Origin: Bacteroidales bacterium
Lineage (GTDB): Bacteria > Bacteroidota > Bacteroidia > Bacteroidales > P3
Assembly (NCBI GenBank): GCA_045639845.1
Contig: JAZUDW010000107.1
Location: 4,106-68,105 of the forward strand
Reading direction: 5' to 3'
DNA length: 64,000 nucleotides
In this document: piece by piece, positions 10,327 to 58,614 of the stretch
Layout of the letters: every line of letters starts with the position of its first letter
Position numbering within the stretch: the stretch's first letter is position 1
Notes under the pieces: model-generated
Seen by the model: the letters and a program-made list of their open reading frames with translations, nothing else
Database searches by the model: none
Told to the model about the DNA's origin: nothing
Position numbers and translations under genes: made by a program

Positions 10327-11346
10327 TTACCAATCAACAAATCGAGTATTTGCGCCAACAGTAGGCATTTTTGGAGGTATGACAACTTTGAAACAATAGC
10401 GCAGGTAAACCTCCAACGAACCATTACTCAAGCCTTCTTTATAACCACCAAGCTGAGAAGTAGTCATATCGTAGGAGATGCCAAGATTCAGATTCTGCCA
10501 GTTCACACCAGCCATGAAAGCAATAGCATCCTGAAAACGATAGGACACGCCACCCCATACCAGATTCTCGTAGGCGAGCAAGCACGAAAGATCGATCTGC
10601 ATGGTTTTCAGACTTGCCATCTTAAAAAGAGCAGAAGGACGAAGCTGGAACGAAGGATTGGCAGGAAGGTAATAAGAATAGCCGCCACCCAGCATAAGCA
10701 ATCGAGCATTCTGTCGATGCAGCACCTTACTCTTCGAGGCCAGTAAATTCTTTACAGAAGCGCTGAGCCAATAAGAGCCAGGCACTTGGTAGTATAAACC
10801 AGTAGAAGCATCAATCAAATAATCGGAAGCTGCAGCGCCTGATAGCATAGGGTCACCAGCCGACTGAACAGGATCTAGATAATTGCCAGTGAAATCATCG
10901 GAACCGACAAGGTTTTGATATTGAAGTGTGCTATTGAAGAAATTAACTTCGGCACCAGCAGCCAAGTTACCAGGGCCCCAAAAAATGCGGAAAGCATAAT
11001 CCAACGAAGCATAGAGAGCATCATTGTAGCCGAGTTTGTCATTAAACACGGTGAAGCCAAGACCACCATGGAGTGCTTTCACGGGTGAGTCAAAGGTAAA
11101 CAAATAGTCGGTAGGAGTGCTTCCGGCATCGATACCTGGTGCTGGCGAGTCTAAATTCAACCCCAACCATTGGTTGCGATACATCACCGAAGCGCAAATA
11201 GAGCCCGAGCTACCAGCGTAACCAGGGTTGAAGGAAAGGCGGTTAAACATATACTGAGTAAACTGCGTTTCCATCTGCGCCATGCCAGCACATGAAAATC
11301 CCATTATCATAAGAAATGATATGATTTTATTTAGTCTGATTTTCAT
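10327..11346 (-). CDS. porP: T9SS membrane protein PorP/SprF family
   Basis: 339 aa with a signal peptide, followed by QFTQYMFNRLSFNPGYAG, the PorP/SprF N-terminal signature. The remainder is beta-barrel-like. It is the first gene of the por operon. Confidence 0.85.
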   Translation of the reverse strand: MKIRLNKIISFLMIMGFSCAGMAQMETQFTQYMFNRLSFNPGYAGSSGSICASVMYRNQWLGLNLDSPAPGIDAGSTPTDYLFTFDSPVKALHGGLGFTVFNDKLGYNDALYASLDYAFRIFWGPGNLAAGAEVNFFNSTLQYQNLVGSDDFTGNYLDPVQSAGDPMLSGAAASDYLIDASTGLYYQVPGSYWLSASVKNLLASKSKVLHRQNARLLMLGGGYSYYLPANPSFQLRPSALFKMASLKTMQIDLSCLLAYENLVWGGVSYRFQDAIAFMAGVNWQNLNLGISYDMTTSQLGGYKEGLSNGSLEVYLRYCFKVVIPPKMPTVGANTRFVDW

Positions 11347-36600: not shown

Positions 36601-39600
36601 AGGCGGTTTCGGTTGGTCTTGATGGCGGTGAGATGCTGAAGATCAATTTCCACATTATTTTCGGCAGGCCATACGCCCAAACGATCGTCGCGAGATACAC
36701 CCCAAGGTGTAAGCTTGAGCGGCACCTCGTATTCGTAATAGTTGGAAGTGTAGTCGCTACCCAAACGCACAAAGAGAACAAGGTCGTCATCGTCGAGATT
36801 GTCGAGCTCATGTTTCTGCTCAGCATGAACAAACATCTTGAGTTTGCCATAATAGCGCATATCGTACTGGGAGTTGCGATACACGGCACGCGCATCGCCA
36901 CTGGCCAAGTTGGTAATATCTAGAGAAAGAGCCTGCTCGTTGAGACGGGTGTAGTTGCTGCTGGTGCTATACCACTGTTCGCGTTCAATTCCCGGAGGCA
37001 GACAATATGGCACAGGCTCTCGGCTACCGTTTTCCTGAATATTGACAGTGCTCAGAGTAAACGAAGTGTTGGCATCGGTACCCGTGACATAGTCGCCCGG
37101 CTGATGAAGATCTTCACTATATTTACGCCAAGTGCCGTACACCAGTTCGAGAGTAGCAAAACGAAGAATAACAGGATCCTGAAACTCACGAAGAAACATA
37201 CGGATGAAACGGATGCTTTGGAATCCGTTGATGGAGCCCACCTTACGGTCGGGTTCACGAATGGGGATGCTAAACTGATACCATCGGGCAATGGGGGCTA
37301 TTGTGCCGTCGGGCAGAGGCACATCGTTGGCTTCCTGAATATCTACAATGTGGTTCTGCCCCACCACCATCTGATCGGGGCGAAGGTCGATCACATATTC
37401 ATAATAAGCCTCACCTTCACTCAGCGTATTATCCTTATTGATATCCTCTACATTAGGGAACGAGGATCCAGATGTGGGATAGCTCTCTGGATTATCGACA
37501 GTAGCACGGTTGTTGCCCTCGGGATGGTTGTAGTATTTATAACGATCCACTATCTTGAGGTCGGCATTGTCGTAGTCGCTTCCCAAATAATGATGGTAAT
37601 TGTCGCTACTGGGGTCTTCTATGGCATTGAGGTAGGCCATACTGGCAGGGCCAAACTGATTGGACAGACTTTGAAGATAGCCGTTGAAGAAACTCTGCTC
37701 GTCTTGCACATAGGTGCTACCCAAACCATCGTAACCCACATCCTGATACTTGCGGGTAGATTCATCGAGAGAGAAAGCATTGACGATGGACTGGGTCTTG
37801 GGTACTCGGCCCCAGATTGTGGTATCGACAGGCAAATCATTGAAAGCATCCGCATCGGAGCCGCCAGGGAGACCTTGTTCGAAACTCTTACGACCATCGC
37901 GAAGGATATCTTCACTGATATCGCCCAAATTGATATAGAACTTACCACCGGGCAGAGCATCGTTGTGCTCACCCGTTTCGGGATCAAGGAAGGGATCGAG
38001 CACCCAGAATTCGATAGTCTCGATATTCTGTGTCTCAAAATCTGTATAGTCGAGATGGCGCATAATACCGCCCCAACGAGTTGCAGGGTCATTGAGTCGG
38101 CCGTCGGCATCAACACCTCTACTATATTGGGTAGGCGCCACATCGTAGTTATAGGGGCCACGTTCAGAAGGATAGTAAGCGAGGTTGAGTTCGGCGATAC
38201 GGTCTTCCGAACCCAAAGCCATATCCTTATTGGGGAACACCTCAGTAGAAGAGATACGACGGGCATAAGGCTTGCTACGGTCGGCCACCGTAATATTGTC
38301 GGGGCACTGAGCCGAGTTGGCATCGCCATTGCTGCGCCCATAGAAGACGTTGTGGATGGTGTACCATGAAAGCAAAGCTCGGTTCATACCATATTCCAAC
38401 CCAGTGCCACTGGCCGTCTCGGGGAAGAGGGGCATAGGTGTAGCACAATCCTGAGGGGTACTGGCGAGATGCCACGAAGTAGGCGACTTCAAGTCGATAG
38501 AGCTTTCTGCACCCTCGAAATCGTCGATGTAGGAAGCCGAGCCGTCTTTGCTACCTGTGCGAGCCATACCTGGTATAAACTGAGCGAACTCAGCCTGCAA
38601 GGTGAGTGCCGAGGGTTCCTTGGTAGAGATAAAGGGGAGCTTATCTACAATCTTGGTGATAAGAGGAACATCGTGCTTATAGTTAAGGTCGAGGCCCCAG
38701 ATGCTGTTGCTGGTAGGCTCGTCGCCGAAGTTATTCTTCACCGTCATGGGTTTCTCTCGAAGATTCATAAAAGTACCACCCAGATGGAAATCAGGGTTAA
38801 ACTCATAGTCGAGATGAAGACCCAGCATACGTTTGGTAGTCATAGAGAAGGTATTGTTCTCGCTACTCACACTGATAGGTGTGTTGCTGCTAAGAAGACT
38901 CTCGTTGATGATGCGCACCGTACCCATCGTATAATCGACGGTATAGTCCACATTCTCGATCAGCGGCATACCACCCGCCGTCACTCTCACAGATCCCGGA
39001 GAGACGCTGTATCCAAGACTGATCTCGCCACTCACACTGCTGGTATAGTAGCCCTCAAGGAAGAACTTATTCTTGTCGGCATACTGCTGGGCCAGTGTCT
39101 GAGTCATCGTATAGAGAGAGTCGAAGCAGTAATCGTCGGCATACTCGGGACCCAGTTTCTCACGTAGGTCCCTACCAAAAGGTTCCACATAGGGGAAGAA
39201 GATTCGACCCGTGGAAGCCTGAATGGTACCACCCTTGTAGGCAGCGCTATCCATCCAGTCAAACACACCGTCGGGCATATAATAGCTCTGCGAAGCATCC
39301 ATGCGGTCGAGTCCAAGCAACTCTACCAAAGGCACACCCTCGTAGGGGCCTTCGGTAAGATAGCCTATACCCACGCCGCCGTCGGGACTCTCATAGAGCA
39401 CATTGAGACGGAAATTTTCGCGGCTCAGCTGAGTACTCTTCAAGAAATAGACGTTCTTCATCATCAACTTCCACAATGAGTTGCGGGGATTCACCTTGGA
39501 GCTTTTGAGCAGTTTTACCACCAGCGTATTGGGGTCGTTCACACCATCGGTGGTGAGCTCTCCCACTTGATATACAGTGGTATCGCCTACCACTTGATAC

Positions 39601-40991
39601 TGGAATGCGACAGCCAAAATCTGGTCGTTGCTCAAAGGCTGCGAGAGGGTGATGAAACCCAAACGACTGTTGTAGGTATATTCACTCGGGTTGAGCAGTC
39701 GGGCGCTCTCCACCTTCTCATAGTCGGTGCCGCTGGTAAAACCGATAGTGGTCATATAGTTGGTCACGGCATCGATGCTGCGGATAGTTGAAAGATTGAC
39801 GACTGGGGAACCAGCAGGGCCAGCCATCAAGAGATTGTTAACATTGTTGGCGGGGCGAACTGTGGTAACATCACCCTGCCCTATTCCATTCACGTAGCGA
39901 GACTGAGGATTGGCCTCACCCAGATCGGTAAGCGCCACTATGTTTCTGTTGTTAGTGACAGCAGCACCCACGTTGGTACGCCACACCTCCATGCGGATAA
40001 TCTTGATATTGGAGTTGACCAACGGAAGAGCCGACATGGCCTTATTGTAATTATCGTGAAAATATTGGGCAATGAAATAGTGGCGATTCTCTTCGTATTC
40101 GTCGGCACGGATCTCGAACTCCTGTGCACTAGCACCACCTTGTACCTGCATATTCTCGGTGCTAGTCTCTTTTTGACTTAACACAGCATCGACCATCAAG
40201 TTTCCGAACTTCAACTTGGTATGGAAACCCCAGAGTTGCTGACTACCCTTGATGAGCGTAGTATTGAGTGGGAAAGAGACATCGCCTGCATCGAAGAGCT
40301 GGAGTATATCATCCTCCTTGCCCTCGTATTTCAATTTGATCTGATTCTCGAAATCGAAGGTAGCCTTGGTGTTGTAGTTGACATCAAAATCGAAGAGGTC
40401 TCCAATCTTTGCGTTGATACCCACCTGAATATTTTCGTCAAACTTGGGAGTGATACGACTGCGTTGCGAGGGATCAGCATTGGGGTCGGCGGTATAGTTG
40501 TGCACCAACTCAAAACTTAGGTCAGCACTACCCGTCTTGCTTATCTCTATCTCCGGACGCGTCGTTGTCAGAGCCTCAAGCTTTCGACTAATCTCATTGT
40601 AACCAGGGATCTGACTCAAGAGACCGCCTTCAGGATTGGCATTATTGGTGGTATTGGTAACCTTATCGTTCCAATATTTCTCCATCAGTTGTTCCATACG
40701 GTAGTCTTGGTACTCTTGGAAAGTCATATACTGACGGTTGACCACGATATCGCCCACTTTGGTTATCTTCACATAGCTATTGTCGCGGGCATCGTATTCC
40801 ACAGTGGTCGTCACATTGGAAGGTGTCCAGTCGGGATTTTGCGCTTTGAGCGACAGACAGGGTAGAAAGAAGAACAACAATAGTACCAAGCACCAATAGC
40901 GCACAGGCCCACTATATGAGCCACTACGAGGGGTATTTATATTGTTATTCTTATTCACAACGATACTATTACAATCGACTACTGCACCCAA
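33675..40991 (-). CDS. sprA: T9SS outer-membrane translocon SprA/Sov
   Basis: 2438-aa ORF. Its size, N-terminal signal-like segment (WCLVLLLFFFLPCLSLKAQ), giant beta-barrel composition and C-terminal aromatic residue (RFSF) fit SprA. The open frame begins with TTG 4 nt after the ruvA stop and has no early ATG; a GTG at 40958 is an alternative start. Confidence 0.9.
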   Translation of the reverse strand: MGAVVDCNSIVVNKNNNINTPRSGSYSGPVRYWCLVLLLFFFLPCLSLKAQNPDWTPSNVTTTVEYDARDNSYVKITKVGDIVVNRQYMTFQEYQDYRMEQLMEKYWNDKVTNTTNNANPEGGLLSQIPGYNEISRKLEALTTTRPEIEISKTGSADLSFELVHNYTADPNADPSQRSRITPKFDENIQVGINAKIGDLFDFDVNYNTKATFDFENQIKLKYEGKEDDILQLFDAGDVSFPLNTTLIKGSQQLWGFHTKLKFGNLMVDAVLSQKETSTENMQVQGGASAQEFEIRADEYEENRHYFIAQYFHDNYNKAMSALPLVNSNIKIIRMEVWRTNVGAAVTNNRNIVALTDLGEANPQSRYVNGIGQGDVTTVRPANNVNNLLMAGPAGSPVVNLSTIRSIDAVTNYMTTIGFTSGTDYEKVESARLLNPSEYTYNSRLGFITLSQPLSNDQILAVAFQYQVVGDTTVYQVGELTTDGVNDPNTLVVKLLKSSKVNPRNSLWKLMMKNVYFLKSTQLSRENFRLNVLYESPDGGVGIGYLTEGPYEGVPLVELLGLDRMDASQSYYMPDGVFDWMDSAAYKGGTIQASTGRIFFPYVEPFGRDLREKLGPEYADDYCFDSLYTMTQTLAQQYADKNKFFLEGYYTSSVSGEISLGYSVSPGSVRVTAGGMPLIENVDYTVDYTMGTVRIINESLLSSNTPISVSSENNTFSMTTKRMLGLHLDYEFNPDFHLGGTFMNLREKPMTVKNNFGDEPTSNSIWGLDLNYKHDVPLITKIVDKLPFISTKEPSALTLQAEFAQFIPGMARTGSKDGSASYIDDFEGAESSIDLKSPTSWHLASTPQDCATPMPLFPETASGTGLEYGMNRALLSWYTIHNVFYGRSNGDANSAQCPDNITVADRSKPYARRISSTEVFPNKDMALGSEDRIAELNLAYYPSERGPYNYDVAPTQYSRGVDADGRLNDPATRWGGIMRHLDYTDFETQNIETIEFWVLDPFLDPETGEHNDALPGGKFYINLGDISEDILRDGRKSFEQGLPGGSDADAFNDLPVDTTIWGRVPKTQSIVNAFSLDESTRKYQDVGYDGLGSTYVQDEQSFFNGYLQSLSNQFGPASMAYLNAIEDPSSDNYHHYLGSDYDNADLKIVDRYKYYNHPEGNNRATVDNPESYPTSGSSFPNVEDINKDNTLSEGEAYYEYVIDLRPDQMVVGQNHIVDIQEANDVPLPDGTIAPIARWYQFSIPIREPDRKVGSINGFQSIRFIRMFLREFQDPVILRFATLELVYGTWRKYSEDLHQPGDYVTGTDANTSFTLSTVNIQENGSREPVPYCLPPGIEREQWYSTSSNYTRLNEQALSLDITNLASGDARAVYRNSQYDMRYYGKLKMFVHAEQKHELDNLDDDDLVLFVRLGSDYTSNYYEYEVPLKLTPWGVSRDDRLGVWPAENNVEIDLQHLTAIKTNRNRLIREGNLEYSSTMLYSEFSPDGHRYTVLGSPNLGKVKVIMVGVRNPKKESLDDGNDMMPKSAIVWINELRLSDYTQRGGWSAMALGRTNLADLGTLSIYSSYTSSGFGNLEDRLTTLELINQFNLQTTMQLELGKFFPENWGMHIPFYIDRNKTIGSPEYNPLDPDVVLLDDLATYQTMAERDSVKRMTQERKTTTNITLTNIRKERVGKNALKPHFYDFENFAFSYAYSGERTSDDDLEYYNKDQHRGGFTYSFAFTQPKQLKPFEKKKAFQNKNLKIIKDFNLYTQPKNISFSTEVYRDIESTLLRNKSAALVIIRPAYFKQFTWRRDYSFAYDISRSLRLQFDAGANARIDEPPGLVEERTAADSIWSSILGGGTMENYQQSLNLSWDVPISKLPYLDFLRMPVSYRSSYTYMGTTQALAAQGSHIQNTSQLTATLGGDFNKLYNKVPILKKALAKRPTQRLGQKTNDSKLKDKERNKIDEKRGLKTDQAKTAEDARVADSLRREHLKETLRELGYLGLRMVAGVKNLNTSFNQSSSQSIAGYMGEATILGMDPMAVWTPGLPFVFGANVDIADYLRDRDLFSRDSLMNDPSFATSNQVFSLQATLEPIRDMKIDVTMAQNTSSREEYYYKYLSQSGRVEGPLSYRLTGSYTSTTWSFRTAFRDPDQLYQQFLDNRIVVAERLSSTNPDDYAHQMVYDTMTRMYFPAGYSPNQQTVLLTAFLATYLGDDPATRSFSPFLKMPLPNWSLNYNGLSKIPALQKWFTNITISHRYTSTYTIGNYYTDAAIGAVIDQYDYGFESVLNGGGDYIAPVTMEGVSLTEQFNPLLKMSVNMVNNFQMNLSIQKNRSLNLSFANNQLTETTRDGFTLGMGYRFKDVEVHIKAGDKQHDLKSDLVLNLNITYNDNKTMIRKINQLTSQASSGSKVWMAEFSADYAVSADLTLRFFVQTNINNPYLSFLTATTKGGLSLRFSF

Positions 40992-45050: not shown

Positions 45051-46364
45051 TCATGTTTTATGTTTTTCCTTTTTGGCTGCCGGGAAAAGAATATTGTTCA
45101 ATATAAGCCGATAGCCAGGAGAGTTGGGATAGAGAGACAGATCGGTCTTGGGGTCACCAACGAAATGGCTGTAGTCCTCCGGATCGTGCCCACCAAGAAA
45201 AGTCCAAGTGCCTTTGCCATATTCTCCGTGCAAGTAGCGCACCTCGTCGAGTTCTTTGTTTTCGCCCAAAATCACACAGCTAGTCTTCACATAACGTTTG
45301 CGGAAGGCCGTAGTCTGCCCCATAAAGCCATGGATAATGTGAGTGTGATTCTGCGTGAGCATAGTAGGAATCCAGTCCCATTTAGCACTGAAATCAAAAA
45401 GGGTGAAGAAATCCGTCTTCTCGTTCACCACCCGCTGACGCTGACGCTGATCAATGTCGATACTCGAGATCTCGTATTCAGCCGGATTGGTAGTGATGGT
45501 AAAATCTTTGAAAGCAAAAGTCTTGCTGTAGTCGAGCATCTGCTGAGCATTGGGAGTCATGGGGTCGCCGTCGAACATCACGTCGCATATATCAACCCCT
45601 TCGGCAGCAAGAGCCACATCGTAGCTGTCGGGAGCCGAACACATAGCGAAGAGGAAACCGCCGCCCATCACAAAGTCGCGAATCTTGTGCACCACAGCCA
45701 GCTTGAGCAACGACACCTTGCTGTAGCCCAACTTGTGAGCCATAGCCTCCTGGGCTCGCACGTCCTCAATATACCATTGCTGGGTACGGTAGTTGGCCCA
45801 AAACTTGCCATACTGACCCGTGAAATCCTCATGATGCAGATGGAGCCAGTCGTAGGTAGGCAGCACGCCCGACAGCACCTCCTCGTCATAGACCACATCG
45901 TAGGGTATCTCGGCATAGGTGAGCACCAGCGTCACTGCATCGTCCCAGGGCAGCTTGTTTTTTGGCGAATACACAGCAATCCGGGGAGCTTTCTGCAGCC
46001 GCACAGCATCCATGTTCACCGAAGGGTCGGCTATCTCACTAAGTATGGCACTCGACTGGCCGTCGGCCAACGTCTCGCTCGAGACACCCCGCAGCCTGCA
46101 CTCTTTGTCCAACGCATCGGCATACTTCATCAAGAAGGCGCCGCCCCTATAGTTGAGCAGCCAAGTCACCTCCACATCGCGCTCCAGAGCCCAATAAGCA
46201 ACACCATAGGCCTTAAGATGATTGCGTTGCACCTCGTCCATCGGTATCAGCAGATAAGAAGCACGCACATATCCTACGGCACAAAGCCACAAAGCCATAA
46301 AAAAGACCCCTATCCACCTATAAGAAAGACGGCGATGTATGTCTAATATATTATCATTATTCAT
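45051..46364 (-). CDS. Conserved hypothetical membrane-anchored protein
   Basis: 437 aa with one N-terminal TM segment (WIGVFFMALWLCAVGY), then a globular domain of balanced composition. I cannot assign a function. The mirror ORF on the + strand is rejected. Confidence 0.5.
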   Translation of the reverse strand: MNNDNILDIHRRLSYRWIGVFFMALWLCAVGYVRASYLLIPMDEVQRNHLKAYGVAYWALERDVEVTWLLNYRGGAFLMKYADALDKECRLRGVSSETLADGQSSAILSEIADPSVNMDAVRLQKAPRIAVYSPKNKLPWDDAVTLVLTYAEIPYDVVYDEEVLSGVLPTYDWLHLHHEDFTGQYGKFWANYRTQQWYIEDVRAQEAMAHKLGYSKVSLLKLAVVHKIRDFVMGGGFLFAMCSAPDSYDVALAAEGVDICDVMFDGDPMTPNAQQMLDYSKTFAFKDFTITTNPAEYEISSIDIDQRQRQRVVNEKTDFFTLFDFSAKWDWIPTMLTQNHTHIIHGFMGQTTAFRKRYVKTSCVILGENKELDEVRYLHGEYGKGTWTFLGGHDPEDYSHFVGDPKTDLSLYPNSPGYRLILNNILFPAAKKEKHKT

Positions 46365-46469
46365 TAGGTTAAAAAAAATTTACTATCATTAGGTAGTACG
46401 CTTAATGATTAATAACTAAAAAATACCTATTTTATTGTATGGTGCCTCTGGCCCTTATTCCCTTCGCCA

Positions 46470-46507
46470 CAAAGGAAACGCCTCTGCTGTCGCGATGACA
46501 GCAGAGG
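46470..46507 (-). terminator. Hairpin terminator after the 1015-aa gene
   Basis: Perfect 11-bp stem cctctgctgtc/gacagcagagg with a 5-nt loop, 33 nt after the stop. The T-rich tail is only moderate (cgtttcctttg). Confidence 0.55.
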
Positions 46508-46539
46508 AATGGCTCATAATTATTGAAAATCAACAAGCC

Positions 46540-49500
46540 TTAGTGCGAAGCACAATTCTCGCCAATAGTCACATTCGTATCGCCCTGGACCACACCTCCG
46601 TTACCACCACCATACACATTCTGCTCTATTTCGGTGTTACCATAGATATTAACCCGAGTGCTACCCGTCACAATGGCCGTGCTACCCAGACCGCCGCCAA
46701 ACACGTGGTTTCTGATCAATACCTTCTTATCATCGCCATCCATGCCACGGGTTGTCACCGTGGGGTTTCCTACCACGGGAGCGGCGCTGCCGCCGCCATA
46801 TACCGAACCATTCACCACTGCCTTGTGGCTGTAGCTGTGTTCGCCGTTCGCACAGTCGGTATTCACATTCACCTGCGGGTTGCCCGTCACCGTAGCCGAC
46901 TCACCCAGGCCGCCGCCGAACACATCGCCCTCTATAGTAGCATTGCGGATATTCACCACAGGGCCACGCGGCGTCCCCGCAGAGCCATAGGCAGCCTGGT
47001 TGCCGCCGCCATACACGTTGGTGAGCGAGTTGGAGCCGCACAATCCGTCCCAATCCACATTCACGGTGATGCCACCATTGATGCTACCACCCGAATTGTT
47101 GCCGCCAAACACATTGCCGATATTACCGCCATTGATATTCAAAACTATATCGCCGTCCACATCGGCATTGTTGGCACCGCCGTACACATTGTCGATAGTA
47201 CCATCGCCCGTACAAGCAATGGTGATTGTTCCTGCTTTTCCGTCGGCCTCATTGCCGCCACCATAAAGATTGGTTATTGCGATATCGCAGGCTTCTGGAT
47301 CCTTATCCACTGTAACACTCACACTGCCTCGGATATTGCCTAAAGTATTGCTGCCACCATAGGTATTGGTGATGGAGCCGCCTTTGATAGTCAGACTCAC
47401 ATTGCCCGTACCCAAGGTATATTCTGTGGTACCATTGGCTTCATAACCCACATGGGCAGCAACCGACTCTCCATTGCCGCCGCCGAAGGCATCGGTGATA
47501 CGACCACCCCAGATGGTGACATTCGTTGACGGCACTGAAGCCGCATCGCCTCCACCGAACACACGATCCACTACAGTCTCACAACCACGAACAACGACCG
47601 ATGGAATGCCATAGGTGGCAGCGTGCTTGCCTCCACCAAACACATCGTTGAGGTCGAGAGGTGTAACCTCCTTCTCTGCAAGATTGGCCGGACCATCCAC
47701 CAGCACCGTGATATTACCCTTGGGCGACCCGTTGGTATTGTTGCCGCCATATACATTGCCGCCCACCTCGGCACCCTTGTTGATAATCACGCTCACGTTG
47801 CCGTTCACATCGGCCTCGTAGGCGGGTATTGCAGGAACGGCATCATTATCGGCCTTCTGACCGAAACCGCCGCCGAAGACATCTCTTCCCACATGGGCAT
47901 CGTTGTTGATGATTACCGTGGTAGTGTTTTCCGTATCGGTGTTCACCGTGCCGAAGCCGCTGCCGCCATATACATCTTCCGTCACTGTGCCACCCGAAAC
48001 CGTTACGGCCACATTGCCCGACACGTTGGTGGCATTACCCAAGCCACCGCCATAGATATTGTTGGCCGAGCCCGACGTCATACTTACGGCGGTGCTGCCC
48101 ACCACGCTGGCAGCCGAGCCGCCGCCATATACATTGCCGCTCACAGCACCTCCGCTGATGGTGACCGCCGGATTGCTGGTAACCACAGCCGATGCACCCA
48201 AGCCGCCGCCGAACACATCGTGGGTCACCGTACCCTTCAGAATGTTGACTGCAGGATAAGCACCGGGAGTGGTAGGTGTATATGCAGCCAGGTTGCCGGC
48301 ACCATAAACGTAGCCGAGACTCAGGTCGCAATCATCGCTCTTATTTACATTCACGGTGATAGCACCGCTGATATTTCCACGGGTATTGTTACCACCGAAC
48401 ACATTGCCGATATTACCGCCATTGATATTCAAAACAATATCACCTTCTACATTGGCCTCGTTGGCCCCACCATACACATTGTCGATCGTTCCCTCTCCGG
48501 TACACCATATGGTGATATGGCCGGCATTGGATGCCGCCATATTGCCTCCACCATACACGTTGACGATATCCATGTGGCAAGCCTCGCTTTCAGCTTCGGC
48601 TTGTGCCGAGATAGAGACATTGGGCACACCGCCAATAATACCCCGACTATTGGAACCGCCAAACACATTGCCAATCTCGCCACCGTAAATCGTCACGTTG
48701 GTATTGCCACCGATATTGGCAGCCTGAACCTGCCCATTACCGCCACCGAACACATCTCCGATACGATTGCCACCATAGATGACCACATCCGTATGGCCAT
48801 TGGTGGAATGAGTCAGGTGAGCAGCGTTGCCACCACCATACACATATTTAATACTATTGTCGCAGTTATGCACCGTCACATGCGGTGTACCCGATGAATA
48901 ATCGGCCTGGTTGCCACCGCCATAGACCGAGAATACTGCATAGCTATCATCATCGTAGTCGTCTGTGCCGTTGTCATCGTGCGAGTTGGTACCATAGATA
49001 TCTACGTGCACCGAGTCTTTGGGCTCACCATTAAGATTGTTGCAACCAAACACACCGCCAGATCCGTTGGCACCTGTACCATCGGTAGCAAATACATTTC
49101 CACCATAGACGTTTACCTGTACAGGCCCATAGACATTGGCAGCAATAGCAGGGTCGGTTTGGCCTAGGGCTCCACCATATATAGAACCATAGACAACACC
49201 GGCATTCAAGGAGACAGATGTTGACTTATCGGCAGTAGCAGTATGAGGTTCCGCCGTAGTGCAATTCACATTACCCAAAGCAGAACCGCCATACACATCA
49301 CCTTTGATGGTAGCAGCTGCTGCATCGCGAGCCGACCCTATCTTACCAATAAGTACCTCCACATTGCCAGTCACCACGGTAGTCTGGCCGAGACCACCGC
49401 CAAAGACACCACCATTATACAGACTCGGATCTCCAATGGTTCCAGAATAGACTTCCACTTTGGTATCTCCATCCACCAAAGCAATCTCCCCACCACCGTA

Positions 49501-49587
49501 AATCTTACCATTGATAGTCTGTGAATGCAACGGAGTAAAGATTCCCAGCAGGACTATAATATTAATAAGACACCACTTTCTTTTCAT
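46540..49587 (-). CDS. Exported YGGG beta-solenoid protein (C-terminal half of the split paralog of the giant gene)
   Basis: 1015 aa counted from ATG 49587; the ORF track starts one codon earlier at a GTG. Signal peptide MKRKWCLINIIVLLGIFTPLHS. [VI][YF]GGG repeats run throughout. The last 190 aa or so are nearly identical to the giant protein C-terminus. A hairpin terminator follows. Confidence 0.8.
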   Translation of the reverse strand: MKRKWCLINIIVLLGIFTPLHSQTINGKIYGGGEIALVDGDTKVEVYSGTIGDPSLYNGGVFGGGLGQTTVVTGNVEVLIGKIGSARDAAAATIKGDVYGGSALGNVNCTTAEPHTATADKSTSVSLNAGVVYGSIYGGALGQTDPAIAANVYGPVQVNVYGGNVFATDGTGANGSGGVFGCNNLNGEPKDSVHVDIYGTNSHDDNGTDDYDDDSYAVFSVYGGGNQADYSSGTPHVTVHNCDNSIKYVYGGGNAAHLTHSTNGHTDVVIYGGNRIGDVFGGGNGQVQAANIGGNTNVTIYGGEIGNVFGGSNSRGIIGGVPNVSISAQAEAESEACHMDIVNVYGGGNMAASNAGHITIWCTGEGTIDNVYGGANEANVEGDIVLNINGGNIGNVFGGNNTRGNISGAITVNVNKSDDCDLSLGYVYGAGNLAAYTPTTPGAYPAVNILKGTVTHDVFGGGLGASAVVTSNPAVTISGGAVSGNVYGGGSAASVVGSTAVSMTSGSANNIYGGGLGNATNVSGNVAVTVSGGTVTEDVYGGSGFGTVNTDTENTTTVIINNDAHVGRDVFGGGFGQKADNDAVPAIPAYEADVNGNVSVIINKGAEVGGNVYGGNNTNGSPKGNITVLVDGPANLAEKEVTPLDLNDVFGGGKHAATYGIPSVVVRGCETVVDRVFGGGDAASVPSTNVTIWGGRITDAFGGGNGESVAAHVGYEANGTTEYTLGTGNVSLTIKGGSITNTYGGSNTLGNIRGSVSVTVDKDPEACDIAITNLYGGGNEADGKAGTITIACTGDGTIDNVYGGANNADVDGDIVLNINGGNIGNVFGGNNSGGSINGGITVNVDWDGLCGSNSLTNVYGGGNQAAYGSAGTPRGPVVNIRNATIEGDVFGGGLGESATVTGNPQVNVNTDCANGEHSYSHKAVVNGSVYGGGSAAPVVGNPTVTTRGMDGDDKKVLIRNHVFGGGLGSTAIVTGSTRVNIYGNTEIEQNVYGGGNGGVVQGDTNVTIGENCASH

Positions 49588-49596
49588 CACTATTGT

Positions 49597-51624
49597 TTAT
49601 TCTGTCCAGTTTTCATCTACAATCACATTCGTGCTTCCCGACACCTTGGCTTTATTGGGATGCCCCTCTTCGCCCTTACCAGCACCAAACACGTTTCCAT
49701 TGATAATACCACCTTTGATGACCACTCTGGTATCGCCATCAACAGCACCCAGAGCTCCGCCACCATAGATATTGTGGCCGAATGTCCACGAAGGATCAAT
49801 TGGATCAACCACAACCGTGGTTGTTCCATACACATGGGCTATGTCTAAATATTCGTTTTGATCAGTAGCAATACCAGAGCCCCCTCCGTATATATCACCT
49901 TCGATATTGCCTCCACGTATATTCACGTGCGTGTTGCCATAAACCTGGGCCACGGAAAGGAAGCCTGATTTATGAGGATTGGATTGATTATAATACTCTT
50001 TAGTACCAAGGCCACCCCCATACACACCCCCACGAATAGTACCACCATAGATATTAACATAGGTATCACCATAGTGGGTACCGGCTCCATCTGGGGCATA
50101 CGATACTGTGACTTGAGGCTCATATCCCCTACTACCACCACAGATACCTCCCTCTATCAAACCTCCATATACATTGAAGGTAAGCCTAGTCTCAGCCAGG
50201 TCAAGATAATCCTGTCCTTCCACATATCCCTCATCGCCATTGTGATAGGTAGATTTGAGGGTCATCATCGTACCCGATTCGCTGTAAGAACCAAAAGATA
50301 GTTCATTGCTATTATTCACATAAGGTATAGCATAGTCGGGGGTATGAATATTGTGATCATTCTCATAACGCAGCCCACTGAAGGCTGTTGCCGAAGCAAA
50401 CACACCCGCCATAATAGTTCCACTGTACATATTGAACTCCGACTGCCCGTAGAAATACGATGAGCCTGCATTGGTTTGACTACTGGATGTCTGAGTTCGG
50501 CCCTGGGTGCCGCCATAGAACGTCTGTATCGTCACATCGCTACTACCACCATCTTCGTTTCCTACATTCACAACCGTTCGGCCTGCAAAGGTAGCCGCAG
50601 GAATTTGACTAATAACGCATTGATTAATATTATTACCCTGCGTACCAGCCACCATGGTGCCTATGCTTCCGTGCTTGATATCAAACTGCACATCAGCACA
50701 TACTAAACCTTGCGATGACCCACCCAACAAGATACCGATATCATCGGCATAATTACCCGTATTGTCGTTACCAGGCTGAATATCCACGATGACATTTGCC
50801 ATAATAGGATGTTCGGGAGTACCTTGTATGTAACAGGAGGGGACAGAGGTTGCATTTGTGCCCTGAGTACGGGACAGTGCCACACGACCATAGCGTCCCG
50901 ATTTGAATGTAACTGTCATTCTTTTATCGTCGGGCATTCGGTATTTCACATCATTGGTATCTCGGGCAATTTTAGAATCGTAATGGTCAAACGACATCTG
51001 GATATGAAAAGCAGGAGCATCACGGTCACTAATCATACCATATTGAGTACCAAGTGAAGCAAACCCCATCATTATGAGTCCTTCATCAAAACAGGTGGAA
51101 TGTAAACGGAGACACAATCTATCTTGGAGTCCTCCATCTCCTTGTATTCTCGCATTCTTGAAACGCGCATCCGCACCTATATTGTTGGTAGTACCGGAGA
51201 TCTTAATTTGACCACCCTTAATTATTGAATCCGTTGTAGCTTTACCATCTTGATCCCAAGGCCATACTCCTGTAATTGTGGCAGGTGTACCTGGGGTATT
51301 CGAGACATCTTTCGTATCGTTTTCTTTGAAATTCAGTTGCATCTCGTCCACAACTACAATCACGTTGTGTTCCCAATCGTATTCTCGATTGCCAGTATTC
51401 ACAAGTTTTTTGTATGCATTGGGCCAAGAACCGACAGGACTACTGGAGCTTGATCCATCGCCATTTCCACCAGAGCGTAGATACACCACATTATACGTCA
51501 CCTCATGATACGTCTCTGTATGCGGAGCTTGCTGAGCCCACAATCTACCCATTCCAACAATGGATAAGAAAAAAACAAGTAGTTTTACATATGTTTTCAT
51601 ACGTATCATACGCGTTGTCTGCAT
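49597..51624 (-). CDS. Exported beta-solenoid protein (N-terminal half of the split paralog of the giant gene)
   Basis: 675 aa. Signal peptide (MKTYVKLLVFFLSIVGMGRLWA) lies within the first 31 residues. Collinear with giant-protein residues of about 1197-1880. A TAttTTTG box lies 82 nt upstream. Alternative starts are at codons 6 and 9. Confidence 0.8.
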   Translation of the reverse strand: MQTTRMIRMKTYVKLLVFFLSIVGMGRLWAQQAPHTETYHEVTYNVVYLRSGGNGDGSSSSSPVGSWPNAYKKLVNTGNREYDWEHNVIVVVDEMQLNFKENDTKDVSNTPGTPATITGVWPWDQDGKATTDSIIKGGQIKISGTTNNIGADARFKNARIQGDGGLQDRLCLRLHSTCFDEGLIMMGFASLGTQYGMISDRDAPAFHIQMSFDHYDSKIARDTNDVKYRMPDDKRMTVTFKSGRYGRVALSRTQGTNATSVPSCYIQGTPEHPIMANVIVDIQPGNDNTGNYADDIGILLGGSSQGLVCADVQFDIKHGSIGTMVAGTQGNNINQCVISQIPAATFAGRTVVNVGNEDGGSSDVTIQTFYGGTQGRTQTSSSQTNAGSSYFYGQSEFNMYSGTIMAGVFASATAFSGLRYENDHNIHTPDYAIPYVNNSNELSFGSYSESGTMMTLKSTYHNGDEGYVEGQDYLDLAETRLTFNVYGGLIEGGICGGSRGYEPQVTVSYAPDGAGTHYGDTYVNIYGGTIRGGVYGGGLGTKEYYNQSNPHKSGFLSVAQVYGNTHVNIRGGNIEGDIYGGGSGIATDQNEYLDIAHVYGTTTVVVDPIDPSWTFGHNIYGGGALGAVDGDTRVVIKGGIINGNVFGAGKGEEGHPNKAKVSGSTNVIVDENWTE

Positions 51625-51705
51625 CCGTTATACAATTACATATCGCGCTGAATCATAAACACAAAGTGAGATTCAACAGCAACATTCATACTTTCAATAC
51701 AATTG

Positions 51706-51713
51706 CAAAAATA
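51706..51713 (-). promoter_or_regulatory. -7 promoter box (TAttTTTG) of the 675-aa/1015-aa gene pair
   Basis: Exact motif 82 nt upstream of ATG 51624. The context ttttttgtatttttgcaattg parallels the giant-gene promoter. Confidence 0.55.
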
Positions 51714-52019
51714 CAAAAAACAATTGATTCTCCATATTTTTTTTCAAAAGATTAATGCTGAATTCAAGTTGCAAAAGCGGCTTTGTTCACCACACTTATC
51801 ATTTATATTCGGAAGTAAAAACACAAAAAAATCTTGAATGGCAGGGGGGGGGAAACGGAATCTCGTAAGCGAATAGCACACCCACTCTAACTGTTGCACA
51901 AAGTCCATCTTTGTTTAGGTCCACAGACATTAGGGGGGGCTATTCGACAGTGAATCGTTTTCCTGCAACAACACGGTCGTTCTTTCGCCATACCTCTATA
52001 GTGAATGCGGCCTTTCTTC

Positions 52020-52072
52020 GTCCCCGGGACGACAGCACCCCGAAGGCACCCCGAAAGCACCCCGAAGGCAGA
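52020..52072 (-). repeat. Module M2, 675-aa gene locus, opposite orientation
   Basis: The reverse complement reads tctgccttcggggtgctttcggggtgccttcggggtgctgtcgtcccggggac. Confidence 0.65.
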
Positions 52073-52122
52073 CCCTTTTCAATGACGAAATGATGGGGGG
52101 GAGGCGGAATCTTTCTAGATTC

Positions 52123-52182
52123 GTGTTCAAATGGCTAGAGTGTCTGGCGGAATCAAGCAATCACCCACATACGGATAATCAT
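52123..52182 (-). repeat. Module M1, copy D (upstream of the 675-aa gene, opposite orientation to A-C)
   Basis: The reverse complement reads atgattatccgtatgtgggtgattgcttgattccgccagacactctagccatttgaacac. Confidence 0.65.
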
Positions 52183-52606
52183 AAGAATCCTTGTTAACCA
52201 TACGGCTCTTTCTGTTCGTCCAAAGGTGAATATTGTTGTTTAGATTTCCCAGTGATCCCTAGACCGATGGCCAATCTGGCAGGAAACAGATAGTTTTGGC
52301 ACAATAATTCCAGAAAAGGAGAACGGAATATGTTAAATCGTCACAGAAGGACATTATTTGACAGTACAATATAAGACATTTTGTCACACATATGAATTCG
52401 GCACAGAATTGGATAATAGGGAAGTGTTGTTCGACAGTGCTGGTCGAAAAAGAAAAAAAACGAAACAGCCAACGTCGCTCAGCCAGCCATAACCGAAAAA
52501 TGACCATCAACCAAGAAAAGGAAAACGACAAACCATAACCAGATAAATATTGAAGACTAAATATCCAAACCAAAACTACAAACCATTTTAAATAGGAGAT
52601 AAAACT

Positions 52607-53044
52607 ATGTTAGTGAACAACAACCTTACTGTACCCTCGCTTTTCAACGAACTGCTCAACTGGAACAATTGGATGAGTCCTTCTTGGACCCCCGAAACCG
52701 CAGCAGCACCCAAGATGAATGTGATAGAAAGCAGCACCGCCTACCAGCTGGAACTGATGGTGCCCGGGCTGAAGAAGGAAGACCTCAACTTATGGGTCAA
52801 TGCCGACGGCATGCTGGTGATAGAGATGGCGCATCAGGAACAGTACGAGCAGAAGACCGAAGGATGCAAATATCTGCGTCGCGAGTTCGGGTCCATCCAA
52901 TTCAAGAAGACCATAGCGCTACCCAACCACGTGAAACGCGAACAGATTAGCGCCAAAGTGGAAGACGGCATCTTGAGAGTGACACTACCCAAGGTCACCG
53001 AAGAGGAGAAACGCCAACTTCAACAAACCATCATGATCGAATAA
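52607..53044 (+). CDS. Hsp20/alpha-crystallin family small heat-shock protein
   Basis: 145 aa. Alpha-crystallin domain pattern (PKMNVIESSTAYQLELMVPGLKKEDLNLWV...ISAKVEDGILRVTLPK). Followed by a strong intrinsic terminator. Confidence 0.9.
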   Translation: MLVNNNLTVPSLFNELLNWNNWMSPSWTPETAAAPKMNVIESSTAYQLELMVPGLKKEDLNLWVNADGMLVIEMAHQEQYEQKTEGCKYLRREFGSIQFKKTIALPNHVKREQISAKVEDGILRVTLPKVTEEEKRQLQQTIMIE

Positions 53045-53088
53045 CCCATTTTTTTCATAAGTGTATAAGTTTAATTGGTTAATCATGG

Positions 53089-53128
53089 AAGCTCTCACCT
53101 GTGATAGGCGAGAGCTTTGTTTTTTTTC
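53089..53128 (+). terminator. Intrinsic terminator of hsp20
   Basis: Stem aagctctc/gagagctt followed by tgTTTTTTTT. Confidence 0.75.
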
Positions 53129-53445
53129 GCCCTTGATTACTCAACACCTTTGTCGTGCCCACCAAAATCCATACAGTCAATTACTATTCACCCACTTGCC
53201 ACACCCGATACAACATTTGTAAAAAGCGCAAGCATCGATGACCGAATTTCTTGTTTTGAACACATCAAAAAGGCGCCAGAGATTGCTTTGAGGGAACCGA
53301 CAGCCAGGTTTTGAGATTAAAAAAAATGTCTTCAATCCCTCGATGGGTCAATGCAACTGGCTGACTGAACGTTTGATTCGATTTCACCGAATGCGGCATT
53401 CGGAAATTTCAAATACCAAAAAGAGGCCAAAATGGAAAGGGTTGG

Positions 53446-53453
53446 TATTTTTG
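53446..53453 (+). promoter_or_regulatory. -7 promoter box (TAttTTTG)
   Basis: Exact motif upstream of the candidate 66-aa membrane protein. Confidence 0.4.
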
Positions 53454-53507
53454 CAGCCGAAAACGGAATCAAAAAAAACAATTCAAACAAAAAAAACAAC
53501 ATCAACA

Positions 53508-53708
53508 ATGAAAATGATTGCCCTCACTCTCTTGGCTGCATCGCAACCCGTCATGGTATGGTCTATGATCGTTCTCTTTCTGGTAGCCGCTTTCGTGTTT
53601 CGCGTAGTTGACGATCTGGCCACTGTGAAAAAAATCGACAAAGCGTTGAAGACAAAGGCTACGATGAAAACCATGGAACCAAAAAATGATAATCAGCAGA
53701 TAGCCTAA
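53508..53708 (+). CDS. Candidate small membrane protein (66 aa)
   Basis: ATG lies 55 nt after the TAttTTTG box at 53446-53453. One clear TM helix (VMVWSMIVLFLVAAFVFRVV). I have no homology knowledge. The longer 121-aa version in the ORF track would start upstream of the promoter box. Confidence 0.35.
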   Translation: MKMIALTLLAASQPVMVWSMIVLFLVAAFVFRVVDDLATVKKIDKALKTKATMKTMEPKNDNQQIA

Positions 53709-53911
53709 ACAGCGGGAATCAGCACGCTGATTTTAGCAAATCACTCATGTTTTTTTTGGGGAGAGGGTCCAGCCATTTTCCTCTCCCTTTCTCGCCGAGG
53801 GGTGGGAATGTACTTCCTAAGGGTCATTTACGGCTCGTCCCAAACAACTAAGCTACAATCATACAATAGTGTACAGCCCACCCTACTGGCAACAACACAA
53901 GACAAACATAT

Positions 53912-56742: not shown

Positions 56743-58614
56743 ATGAAAAGAATAGCACTGATTGTCATTGCGTTTTGTGTAGCCATTGCAGCACAGAGTC
56801 AGACTCTTTTATACGAGGATTTCTCAAATGGATTCCCCGAAGGGTGGTCTATGTTTAACGACGACAACCTCCCCTACAATGCCGCCTACGATGAAGCATG
56901 GGTACTGAACACCCAGTATGGCAACGAGGCCCCCTGTGCTGCCAGCACCTCATGGTTCTCTACACCCGCCCAGGCCGACCGATGGCTTATTACTCCGTCG
57001 ATATCCATTCCCGGATCGGGCTACTACCTCTGGTTCGACGCAAGAGCTTTGGAGAACGCATACCCCGACGGCTTCGACATCAGGGTATCCACCCAAGGAC
57101 CCACCGACCGACTACTCTTTCACGAGGAGGTGCTGCTACATGTGGATCGCTGTTCCTCCAACTGGACCGAATACATGGTAGATCTCTCGCAGTATGCGGG
57201 CCAAAACGTATGGTTGGCTTTTGTGCAGAACTCCTTAGACATGAACCTGCTGATGATAGACAACGTGACGGTAGGCGTGCCTCCGCAGCATGCCATTGCT
57301 CTCCGCCAACTCTATCTGCCCATCAGCGCCACTATCGATACCCATGTACCCATACGCGGTATGGTGGTAAACAGAGGTATGGCTCCGCTCACAAGCTTCG
57401 ACGTGAGCTATAGTGTAAACGGATCGGAACGCAACACTACCCATTTCTCCAGCTTGAACCTAGAGCATGGTACCGCCTTCACTTTCACCTGCGACCTCGA
57501 CTTTATCACACCTCTCTTGGGCACCTACAATATCAGCGTCACCGTGAGCAACCCCAACGGCATGACCGACGACCCGATAGACAACACCTTGGATGCCGAC
57601 ATCATCATATTTGACAGCAACTTGATCATGCCTCGTCTCAACGTAGCAGAGATGATGATGCTCACAAGCAACGCCTTGTCGCCCCAAGCATGGCAAGAGG
57701 TAGAGATGGCCAGCGAGATGGTCGATCCATCGGTGGTAATGCTGGCCCACCATGCCGGCAATGGCACTGACGCTCTCACGTGCGAAGGAAGTATCGCCAA
57801 CGAACGTTTCTACAACGGGCAGACTCCCTTTGTGCCTGCCATCATGTACAACCGCACACGTCTGTCGAGCCACTATCGTGGCCCTTTGATGGGCGTGAGC
57901 GCTATGGTACGCGAGGTCGGCGACATGATTGAGAGAGCCAACGCGTTGCCCAGCTATGTGCGTATGGCTTGGAGCAATGTGACCTTCGACGAAGACAGCC
58001 GTGAGGTTCACGCCACCGTATCGGGACGTTTCGCCTACCGCGATGGCACTGAGACTCCGCGCATCACTATCTATATGGTGGAAGACAGCGTTTATATGGG
58101 ACAACGGACGGAACGCGGATGGCAGTTCGGCTACCGTCACATGAACGTGGTACGCGACGAGGTGGCCACCATCGACTGCAACGACATCAGCTACGATGGT
58201 AACTACAGCTACAACATCAGCTACACGTTGCCCGACAATATGCGTGCTTGGCGTTGCCGTATGGTAGCACTCATAGCCAACCACGACAACACCAACATCA
58301 ACAACAACCGAGTGATGAATGCAGCCGTCACGGCCCCCTTTGAAGCCCCCTTCGTTGACATTGCCCCCATAGCACAGGGTGCCGCCATAGAGATCTGCCC
58401 CAATCCTGCCATCAGTACCACCACCATCAAATCCGAGAGCGCCATACGTCGCATAGAAGTCTTCAACATGATGGGCATGCAAGTATATAGTACCAGCCAC
58501 ATCAACGACAATAGTGTCTCTATCTCGGTAAGCCATCTGCCCGAAGGCATCTATCTGGTACGCGTAGAGACCGACCGAGGTGGTTCGATGAGCAAGCTAT
58601 CGGTGGTTAGATAA
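56743..58614 (+). CDS. T9SS cargo protein with choice-of-anchor-J-like N-terminal domain and type A C-terminal sorting domain
   Basis: 623 aa with a signal peptide. N-terminal LLYEDFSNGFPEGWSMFNDDN block. The last 75 aa or so (IEICPNPAISTTTIKSES...GIYLVRVETDRGGSMSKLSVVR) match the T9SS CTD pattern. A TAtcTTTG box lies 45 nt upstream. Confidence 0.75.
   Translation: MKRIALIVIAFCVAIAAQSQTLLYEDFSNGFPEGWSMFNDDNLPYNAAYDEAWVLNTQYGNEAPCAASTSWFSTPAQADRWLITPSISIPGSGYYLWFDARALENAYPDGFDIRVSTQGPTDRLLFHEEVLLHVDRCSSNWTEYMVDLSQYAGQNVWLAFVQNSLDMNLLMIDNVTVGVPPQHAIALRQLYLPISATIDTHVPIRGMVVNRGMAPLTSFDVSYSVNGSERNTTHFSSLNLEHGTAFTFTCDLDFITPLLGTYNISVTVSNPNGMTDDPIDNTLDADIIIFDSNLIMPRLNVAEMMMLTSNALSPQAWQEVEMASEMVDPSVVMLAHHAGNGTDALTCEGSIANERFYNGQTPFVPAIMYNRTRLSSHYRGPLMGVSAMVREVGDMIERANALPSYVRMAWSNVTFDEDSREVHATVSGRFAYRDGTETPRITIYMVEDSVYMGQRTERGWQFGYRHMNVVRDEVATIDCNDISYDGNYSYNISYTLPDNMRAWRCRMVALIANHDNTNINNNRVMNAAVTAPFEAPFVDIAPIAQGAAIEICPNPAISTTTIKSESAIRRIEVFNMMGMQVYSTSHINDNSVSISVSHLPEGIYLVRVETDRGGSMSKLSVVR

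Follow-up and report, generated by a model that had tools for sequence, protein, structure and literature searches.

On the minus strand of a 64,000-nucleotide stretch of Bacteroidales DNA (contig JAZUDW010000107.1; hereafter the window), two long open reading frames (ORFs), A (675 aa) and B (1015 aa), follow each other in one reading frame and are separated by a single TAA codon, while elsewhere in the window a giant gene, G, encodes a protein similar to both. This arrangement raises the question of whether A and B are one broken gene, the outcome of a fission, a site of stop-codon recoding, or two genes in their own right. Our analysis indicated, with a probability that we put at roughly 0.8, that both are genuine genes, adjacent in one operon and each encoding a solenoid protein with its own signal peptide, and that the stop between them marks an old and conserved module boundary. 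As judged from sequence comparison, the locus has the layout that is usual in a large protein family that lacks annotation and occurs in horse, rumen and other gut Bacteroidales.

Translation of positions 46540-51624 (minus strand) in one frame revealed exactly one internal stop (n=1). The junction reads ...GTG ATT GTA GAT GAA AAC TGG ACA GAA TAA ACA ATA GTG ATG AAA AGA AAG TGG, and ORF A, its TAA, 9 nt (three codons) and the ATG of ORF B share the frame. All of this had been described in the earlier note on this DNA, except that the triplets given there as GTA ATT are GTG ATT in the sequence. B comprises 1015 aa when counted from its ATG and 1016 aa when counted from the GTG at 49590. Since a spacer of 9 nt leaves no room for a terminator or a promoter, the two genes are probably co-transcribed and translationally coupled. 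Comparison with the giant by BLASTP bore out the collinearity claimed earlier: residues 84-672 of A matched G 1245-1886 with 29.6% identity (E 1e-59), residues 457-1012 of B matched G 1856-2380 with 51% identity, and a concatenate of A and B aligned with G 1245-2356 as a single high-scoring segment pair running across the junction, B continuing where A stops. The distance from the conserved end motif of A to the next YGGG is 41 positions in the split locus versus 14 in G. The approximately 27 extra positions, which the earlier note had put at about 30, correspond to the tail of A, the stop, the spacer and the signal-like N-terminus of B.

The position of the stop was then compared among relatives. 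A search with A returned 49 full-length homologues (54-100% identity), all of them 618-693 aa long, and in the alignment all 49 stop a few residues past the motif ...G-E-[ED]-G-H-P-x-K-A-K-V-T-G-x-T-N-V-x-[IV]-G-E; a continuous ORF in orthologues, which would have spoken for a single gene, was found in none of these close homologues. Relatives were obtained by scanning genome contigs with a profile built from the alignment (the same scan with the single A sequence gave no relatives, and a scan of metagenome contigs with the A alignment gave no matches), and ORF maps were drawn for 25 genome loci and 9 further contigs. The 25 loci all come from Bacteroidales metagenome-assembled genomes, and those with a source in the record title come from horse faeces. 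Some of the loci (L006, L017) contain A' genes, which are longer and have a different N-terminal part but retain the module and the end motif of A. In the fetched loci, the stop lies 8-23 codons after the end motif in 24 of 24 A and A' genes. The nearest relative, L026, whose A protein is 86% identical, is an independent Logan assembly from another sample, and its junction nucleotides are identical to those of the window; the split architecture as such is present in dozens of assemblies. The stop at the motif end in all 49 homologues, together with the identical junction of L026, argues decisively against a recent nonsense mutation and against a sequencing error. In three A'-type proteins (P0089, P0091 and P0093), the terminal unit of about 150 aa is tandemly duplicated and the first copy of the motif is degenerate (GYGE..DKAMVxG). 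These proteins end right past the second copy, which indicates that the end motif, and not protein length, marks the end of the gene.

What follows A in the relatives was equally regular. Every downstream solenoid gene with a clear start begins with a signal peptide that leads directly into a repeat rung, typically ...A/QTI[NKRY]G[NK][IV]YGGG[EQ] (the slash marks the predicted cleavage site). Across the related loci, both the stop after the motif and the downstream signal peptide proved to be conserved, which is in keeping with the earlier suggestion of two separately exported polypeptides rather than decay. The downstream gene lies in the frame of A at 3 of 14 independent adjacent junctions, namely those of the window and L026 (+9 nt), L003 (+3) and L030 (+6). 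Another frame is used in L009, L013/L016, L018, L020, L021, L028, L029, L031 and L033 and at the A'-B junctions of L006 and L017; in L009, L013 and L016 the two genes overlap in ATGA. Since 3 of 14 is the level expected by chance, and since TAA is an ordinary stop (the commonest in the window, used by 20 of the 34 large ORFs), a conserved readthrough mechanism is unsupported. The shared frame of A and B is a coincidence with a prior of 1/3 and carries no signal. Moreover, in L001, L005, L010, L027 and L034, unrelated genes sit exactly where A ends and the following solenoid gene would begin (cf. Table 1), which makes this boundary a true intergenic site; accessory genes, possibly mobile or defence ones, seem to insert at this spot.

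B-type proteins told the same story from the other side of the junction. There were 1301 homologues of B at E<=1e-20, the best 120 of which are 569-1775 aa long. Among the best 118, a hydrophobic, signal-like N-terminus was found in 68 and was followed by [AGST]Q in 59 of these 68, and the end motif of A occurred internally in 1 of the 118. These N-termini, and the rarity of an internal motif, indicate that B-type proteins are normally stand-alone exported proteins. The kind of C-terminal ending seen in B (GxTxVxIG) occurs in B-type homologues as well.

We then asked how the giant relates to the split genes. The A' part of G (query, residues ~910-1890) has 14 full-coverage homologues (55-66% identity, 1268-1659 aa), of which 13 end directly past the motif (e.g. 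...KAKVTGNTNVIVDSEWTEP) and one, P0068, has an extension of about 106 aa. In a neighbour-joining tree of the module, G pairs with P0104, and the sister group of this pair is a split clade; most of the tree consists of split forms. P0104 (1797 aa) is 76% identical to G in the module, and the two share a homologous 14-residue linker (...TYVNIEADANDEVMGDVYGGGELAQVVG in G; ...TYVHVAMSDSDEILGNVYGGGELAQVVG in P0104, linker GHPDKAKLTGETYVHVAMSDSDEILGNVYGGG), which points to one inherited fusion event. The linkers of the other fused proteins (L007, P0083, P0097, P0099 and P0103) are unrelated to it, so that fusion appears to be recurrent and derived. In the 2023-aa A-B fusion of L007, for example, the stop and the signal peptide are gone and the mature start of B is still recognisable (...TVNIED-GTINQHVYGGG; the equivalent sequence is ...TVNIEDGTINQHVYGGG). 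Since an in-frame deletion is enough for a fusion, and a fission has to gain a signal peptide as well as a stop and a start, recurrent fusion is the parsimonious course within the A/A' clade. We therefore favour the view that in this clade the split state is the rule and the giant a derived, rarer fused state. Library-wide, a HMMER search with A gave 186 matches at E<=1e-3, with both split and fused states at deeper divergence: among representatives at 50% identity whose match spans the module in full, 15 end no more than 5 residues past it, 3 end at a duplicated motif and about 19 continue (hand count). The C-termini of B and G, earlier called nearly identical, share 74% of amino acids over the last ~220 residues and 71% of nucleotides over the 3' 727 nt. 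This resemblance is thus weaker than had been stated, and the nucleotide value rules out a recent gene conversion between the two 3' ends.

A fission in this lineage, by which a giant-like single gene was cut in two by newly gained stop and start codons and a signal peptide, is in our opinion quite unlikely. Fused giants with an internal A module are common among relatives at 33-40% identity, and a split in register with the repeat would fit either direction. However, the close homologues of A and of the A' part of G are split at the same motif, the fused forms, with their differing linkers, are scattered and nested in split clades, and if the fused state were ancestral, many fissions must have struck one and the same residue independently and brought in a signal peptide each time. 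Neither is G a recent parent of A and B, since the two loci are 71% identical in nucleotides even at their best-conserved end. The description of the locus as a split paralog of the giant could thus not be maintained, given that splitting is the rule in the A/A' clade and G is nested among split relatives. The reverse reading, which the earlier note had also allowed, is favoured by the linker shared by G and P0104 and by the unrelated linkers of the other fused lineages.

Three further explanations regard the TAA itself as abnormal. Programmed readthrough or recoding would yield an A-B fusion protein, for which A and B, in frame and three sense codons apart, are well placed, and natural fused homologues show that such a protein is viable. 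It is nevertheless very improbable, because the frame is shared at so few junctions and ATGA overlaps occur in several, because TAA is the standard and commonest stop in the window, and because the product would hold an internal hydrophobic signal peptide of the kind that natural fusions delete. A single in-frame TAA between two open frames might also be taken for decay, i.e. for a recent nonsense mutation that left a pseudogene of a once-continuous gene. This is hardly credible for a stop whose position is kept down to 54% identity, for ORFs fully open over 2.0 and 3.0 kb, and for a junction whose ~27 extra positions include a conserved signal peptide. Nothing specific speaks for a sequencing or assembly artefact, although the window is probably part of a metagenome-assembled contig of 69 kb; its probability is negligible in view of the identical junction in L026 and of the same architecture in dozens of assemblies. 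The conserved stop, the L026 junction and the variable frame hence set aside the recent nonsense mutation, sequencing error and readthrough that had been listed as alternatives before. The coordinates of the genes, the junction elements and the related features are collected in Table 1.

Table 1. Features of the A/B locus and of the giant gene G in the window, and of related loci. A slash marks a predicted cleavage site; descriptions for L005, L027 and L034 follow the order of listing.
Feature	Locus	Coordinates	Strand	Basis
Gene A, 675-aa predicted exported beta-solenoid subunit ("A module")	window	49597-51624	-	ORF, homologues, AF2 model
Predicted signal peptide of A, MQTTRMIRMKTYVKLLVFFLSIVGMGRLWA/QQ	window	51535-51624	-	translation; cleavage site inferred; Q-rule fit
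Conserved end motif of A, GEEGHPNKAKVSGSTNVIVDENWTE	window	49600-49674	-	kept in close homologues
TAA stop of A	window	49597-49599	-	sequence; same in independent assembly L026
A-B spacer, 9 nt, ACAATAGTG	window	49588-49596	-	sequence
Gene B, 1015-aa predicted exported beta-solenoid subunit (YGGG repeats)	window	46540-49587	-	ORF, homologues
Predicted signal peptide of B, MKRKWCLINIIVLLGIFTPLHS/Q	window	49522-49587	-	features and equivalents in relatives
Mature B N-terminus QTINGKIYGGG, carrying on the solenoid repeat register after A	window	49489-49521	-	split versus fused junction alignment
C-terminal ~220-aa module of B, common to the giant, ending ...GDTNVTIGENCASH	window	46543-47202	-	74% aa identity
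Giant G, 2384 aa, fused A'-type and B-type, one N-terminal signal peptide	window	18852-26006	-	ORF, alignment
Fusion junction of G, GHPDKAKVTGTTYVNIEADANDEVMGDVYGGG, no stop, no signal peptide	window	20316-20411	-	junction alignment; linker shared with P0104
C-type gene	L003	8996-16378		
C-type gene	L013	9118-16539		
C-type gene	L005	14494-16176		
C-type gene	L007	13076-16516		
Boundary insertion, ~520-aa protein, homologous to that of L010	L001	2326-3882		no Pfam match
Boundary insertion, ~520-aa protein, homologous to that of L001	L010	9288-10859		no Pfam match
Boundary insertion, PRTase-like, 266 aa	L005	9317-10117		
Boundary insertion, NOV_C and PDDEXK_3	L027	3573-5328		
Boundary insertion, 274 aa	L034	6053-6877		

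In the relatives, the genes occur in a recurrent order, in which lipoprotein-like genes are followed by A, sometimes by A', and then by one or more solenoid genes of the B type or the C type. The lipoprotein-like genes upstream of A, which run in one direction with the solenoid genes, include those for DUF3575, DUF5119 (a weak match) and Mfa_like_1 proteins, and this DUF3575/Mfa-like setting was seen in L014, L028, L029 and L032. C-type genes form a third type of solenoid gene, >2400 aa where complete, that comes after B or directly after A; the one after A of L028, on a 97-kb contig, has 3409 aa. L003 and L013 have no B-type gene, and the gene after A in these loci is 76-77% identical to the C gene of L005; the operon is thus modular, consisting of A, an optional A', an optional B, and then C. 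No C-type gene follows B in the window: the downstream ORF 45051-46364, considered as a candidate, showed no C-type similarity and no Pfam match. Upstream of A, the ~2.3 kb at 51625-53911 contain no long minus-strand ORF and just an Hsp20 gene at 52607-53044 (+), and no inverted repeats of the kind seen at invertible promoters were found at 51600-52650. A protein of ~450-490 aa (MDEQ[IY]YH[IL]P[IL]GT.I[LI]RNGI[AT]LTLTE[ED]GWRAELQHSMMRRC...) recurs beside the loci (L014 9256-10620, L020 2202-3680 and L019 14-1300) and may be encoded by a mobile-element gene. B and G also contain long antisense ORFs, of at most 424 aa (46435-47343, 47623-48897, 19668-20156 and 25032-25847, all on the plus strand), which are most likely by-products of the codon composition of glycine-rich repeats rather than genes.

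An AlphaFold2 (AF2) model of A, built from 22 sequences, was confident and mostly beta (predicted local distance difference test score, pLDDT, 85.9; predicted template modelling score, pTM, 0.88), with an N-terminal helix of low confidence. A Foldseek search with this model against the PDB gave no match with E<0.1, and the weak matches were almost all beta-helical: PL6 lyases, Hap, IgA1 protease, antifreeze proteins and tailspikes. A single-sequence AF2 model of G residues 1601-2151, which include the fusion junction, had a pLDDT of 44.6, too low to be used on the question of solenoid continuity. Neither Pfam (E<=0.01) nor NCBIfam gave any match for A, B or G. A separate repeat region (...GS.[LI]GGF.G... 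units) makes up the first ~900 aa of G, and likewise of A'-type proteins; it is unrelated to the YGGG solenoid and has no Pfam match.

With respect to export, the signal peptide of B has three Lys/Arg residues in its n-region, a 12-mer hydropathy of 2.9 and Gln at +1. The predicted cleavage sites of all three proteins expose Gln (A, ...RLWA/QQ; B, ...PLHS/QT; G, ...IAWA/QS), a pattern kept in relatives. Gln at +1 after signal-peptide cleavage is known as the Q-rule of Bacteroidetes (PMC5837995, PMC10653852). Judged heuristically, the N-termini of A, B and G have the n/h/c layout of a Sec/signal peptidase I signal peptide and follow the Q-rule, with Gln at +1 after a small residue. There was no lipobox Cys at their predicted cleavage sites. 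A type IX secretion system (T9SS) C-terminal domain (CTD) was found in none of the three at E<=1, either with whole proteins or with the last 150 aa, and the cargo gene at 56743-58614 in the same window, used as a positive control, matched TIGR04183 with E 9e-11 and 41.6 bits. Pfam and NCBIfam gave no match to an autotransporter barrel or a two-partner secretion (TPS) domain in A, B or G, and the neighbouring genes in the window are unrelated. The window does encode T9SS parts, namely SprA (33675-40991; TIGR04189, 2329 bits), PorP/SprF and CTD-bearing cargo, with 10327-11346 among these loci; the SprA gene is unrelated to the A/B finding. Eight distant giants (P0086, P0087, P0101, P0110, P0116, P0123, P0125 and P0166; 4686-6303 aa, with the A module internal) end in ...G[IV]Y[IV][VI]..[KQ]K[VLY].[VIA]. 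These tails resemble type A CTDs of the T9SS, P0123 being the sole match and a sub-threshold one (TIGR04183, E 0.007), with none in Pfam.

Several points weigh against two genuine genes with an old boundary and a joint function: (i) among deeply diverged relatives (33-40% identity), the A module lies inside many giants of 2000-6300 aa, and a fission may have taken place very early, at the root of the A/A' clade or of the wider family; (ii) the tree of the module was made quickly from distances and has no support values; (iii) the signal peptides were predicted from simple features and conservation; (iv) no DUF3575, DUF5119 or Mfa-like genes lie within the 2.3 kb upstream of A in the window; (v) proteins without a CTD, a lipobox or a barrel could stay in the periplasm; and (vi) the physical association of A with B is one that we infer from the fusions and the repeat register.

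With these points in mind, the observations can be joined into the following model of two cooperating genes. A-type and A'-type genes end just past G-E-[ED]-G-H-P-x-K-A-K-V-T-G-x-T-N-V, and the next gene starts with a signal peptide and Q-T-I-x-G-x-[IV]-Y-G-G-G, so that the cut falls in register with the solenoid repeat. A and B would share one transcript and their translation would probably be coupled, as the 9-nt spacer and the ATGA overlaps of relatives suggest. Each would pass through Sec on its own and be cleaved by signal peptidase I, and the exported proteins would probably begin with a cyclised Gln, as expected from the Q-rule. Several lineages (G/P0104, L007, P0083, P0097, P0099 and P0103) have fused the modules independently, through loss of the stop and the signal peptide. 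Outside the cytoplasm, A and B may act together, most likely as parts of one elongated adhesin-like or fibre-like solenoid assembly.

The fusion of genes that are separate elsewhere is a classic signature of functionally linked partners. It is by this Rosetta-stone logic that the recurrent A-B fusions suggest cooperation. As in known Rosetta-stone pairs, A and B are adjacent in most genomes and form a single, collinear, stop-free ORF in some; unlike such pairs, they are consecutive parts of one solenoid, and the downstream partner needs a signal peptide, which the fusions delete precisely. The last strand of A (...TNVIVDE) and the first rung of B (QTINGKIYGGG) read as one unbroken repeat, as they do in fused proteins, which makes end-to-end stacking conceivable. 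Since B keeps the register of A and its mature N-terminus seems to be a bare rung, the two polypeptides could stack. A, B and, elsewhere, their C-type partners might even form a non-covalent "split solenoid", stacking end to end into a continuous beta-solenoid fibre, a tentative extension of the model that we consider rather unlikely. If it were true, this would be a modular, subunit-built adhesin without a recognisable T9SS, lipoprotein or autotransporter signal, ancestrally tied to operons like those of type V pili, and the recurrent fusions would hard-wire an interface that is normally formed after export.

No description of this solenoid family was found in the literature, and it was compared with known systems. 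Like beta-helical adhesins and passengers (Hap, IgA1 protease, the TPS domains of HxuA), A and B are large, repetitive and predicted to be exported, with a predicted fold that is mostly beta, elongated and made of repeats, and such adhesins and passengers are prominent among the weak Foldseek matches of A. They differ from those adhesins in having no barrel, TPS domain or Pfam/NCBIfam match, in giving no Foldseek E value below 0.1, and in coming from Bacteroidales and not from Proteobacteria. The operons of relatives, in which the A, B and C genes follow DUF3575, DUF5119-like and Mfa_like_1 genes, resemble type V pilus (Fim/Mfa) operons with accessory genes such as that for Mfa5, a protein with a von Willebrand factor A (vWA) domain and a T9SS CTD. 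However, the signals of A and B are of the signal-peptidase-I type and not those of lipoproteins, and the proteins have a solenoid-like model and no Mfa/Fim Pfam match, unlike type V pilus subunits. T9SS cargo also differs: the window encodes SprA, PorP/SprF and a CTD cargo, but A, B and G have no CTD match. Unlike the repeat proteins of the chlamydial Pmp type, they have no Chlam_PMP (GGA[ILV]/FxxN) Pfam match at E<=0.01.

These findings correct an attractive but misleading reading of the locus, which is neither a fresh fission nor a recoding site, and for annotation they mean that adjacent in-frame A and B ORFs ought to be kept apart and not marked as pseudogenes. They also draw attention to more than 1300 B-type proteins without any Pfam or NCBIfam model, and the question of real interest is how solenoids this large, without a CTD and not made as lipoproteins, leave the periplasm. 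A testable prediction from the recurrent fusions is that A and B function within a single assembly, and a cut that keeps the repeat register hints at how long solenoid adhesins may be put together from, or divided into, pieces that are exported separately.

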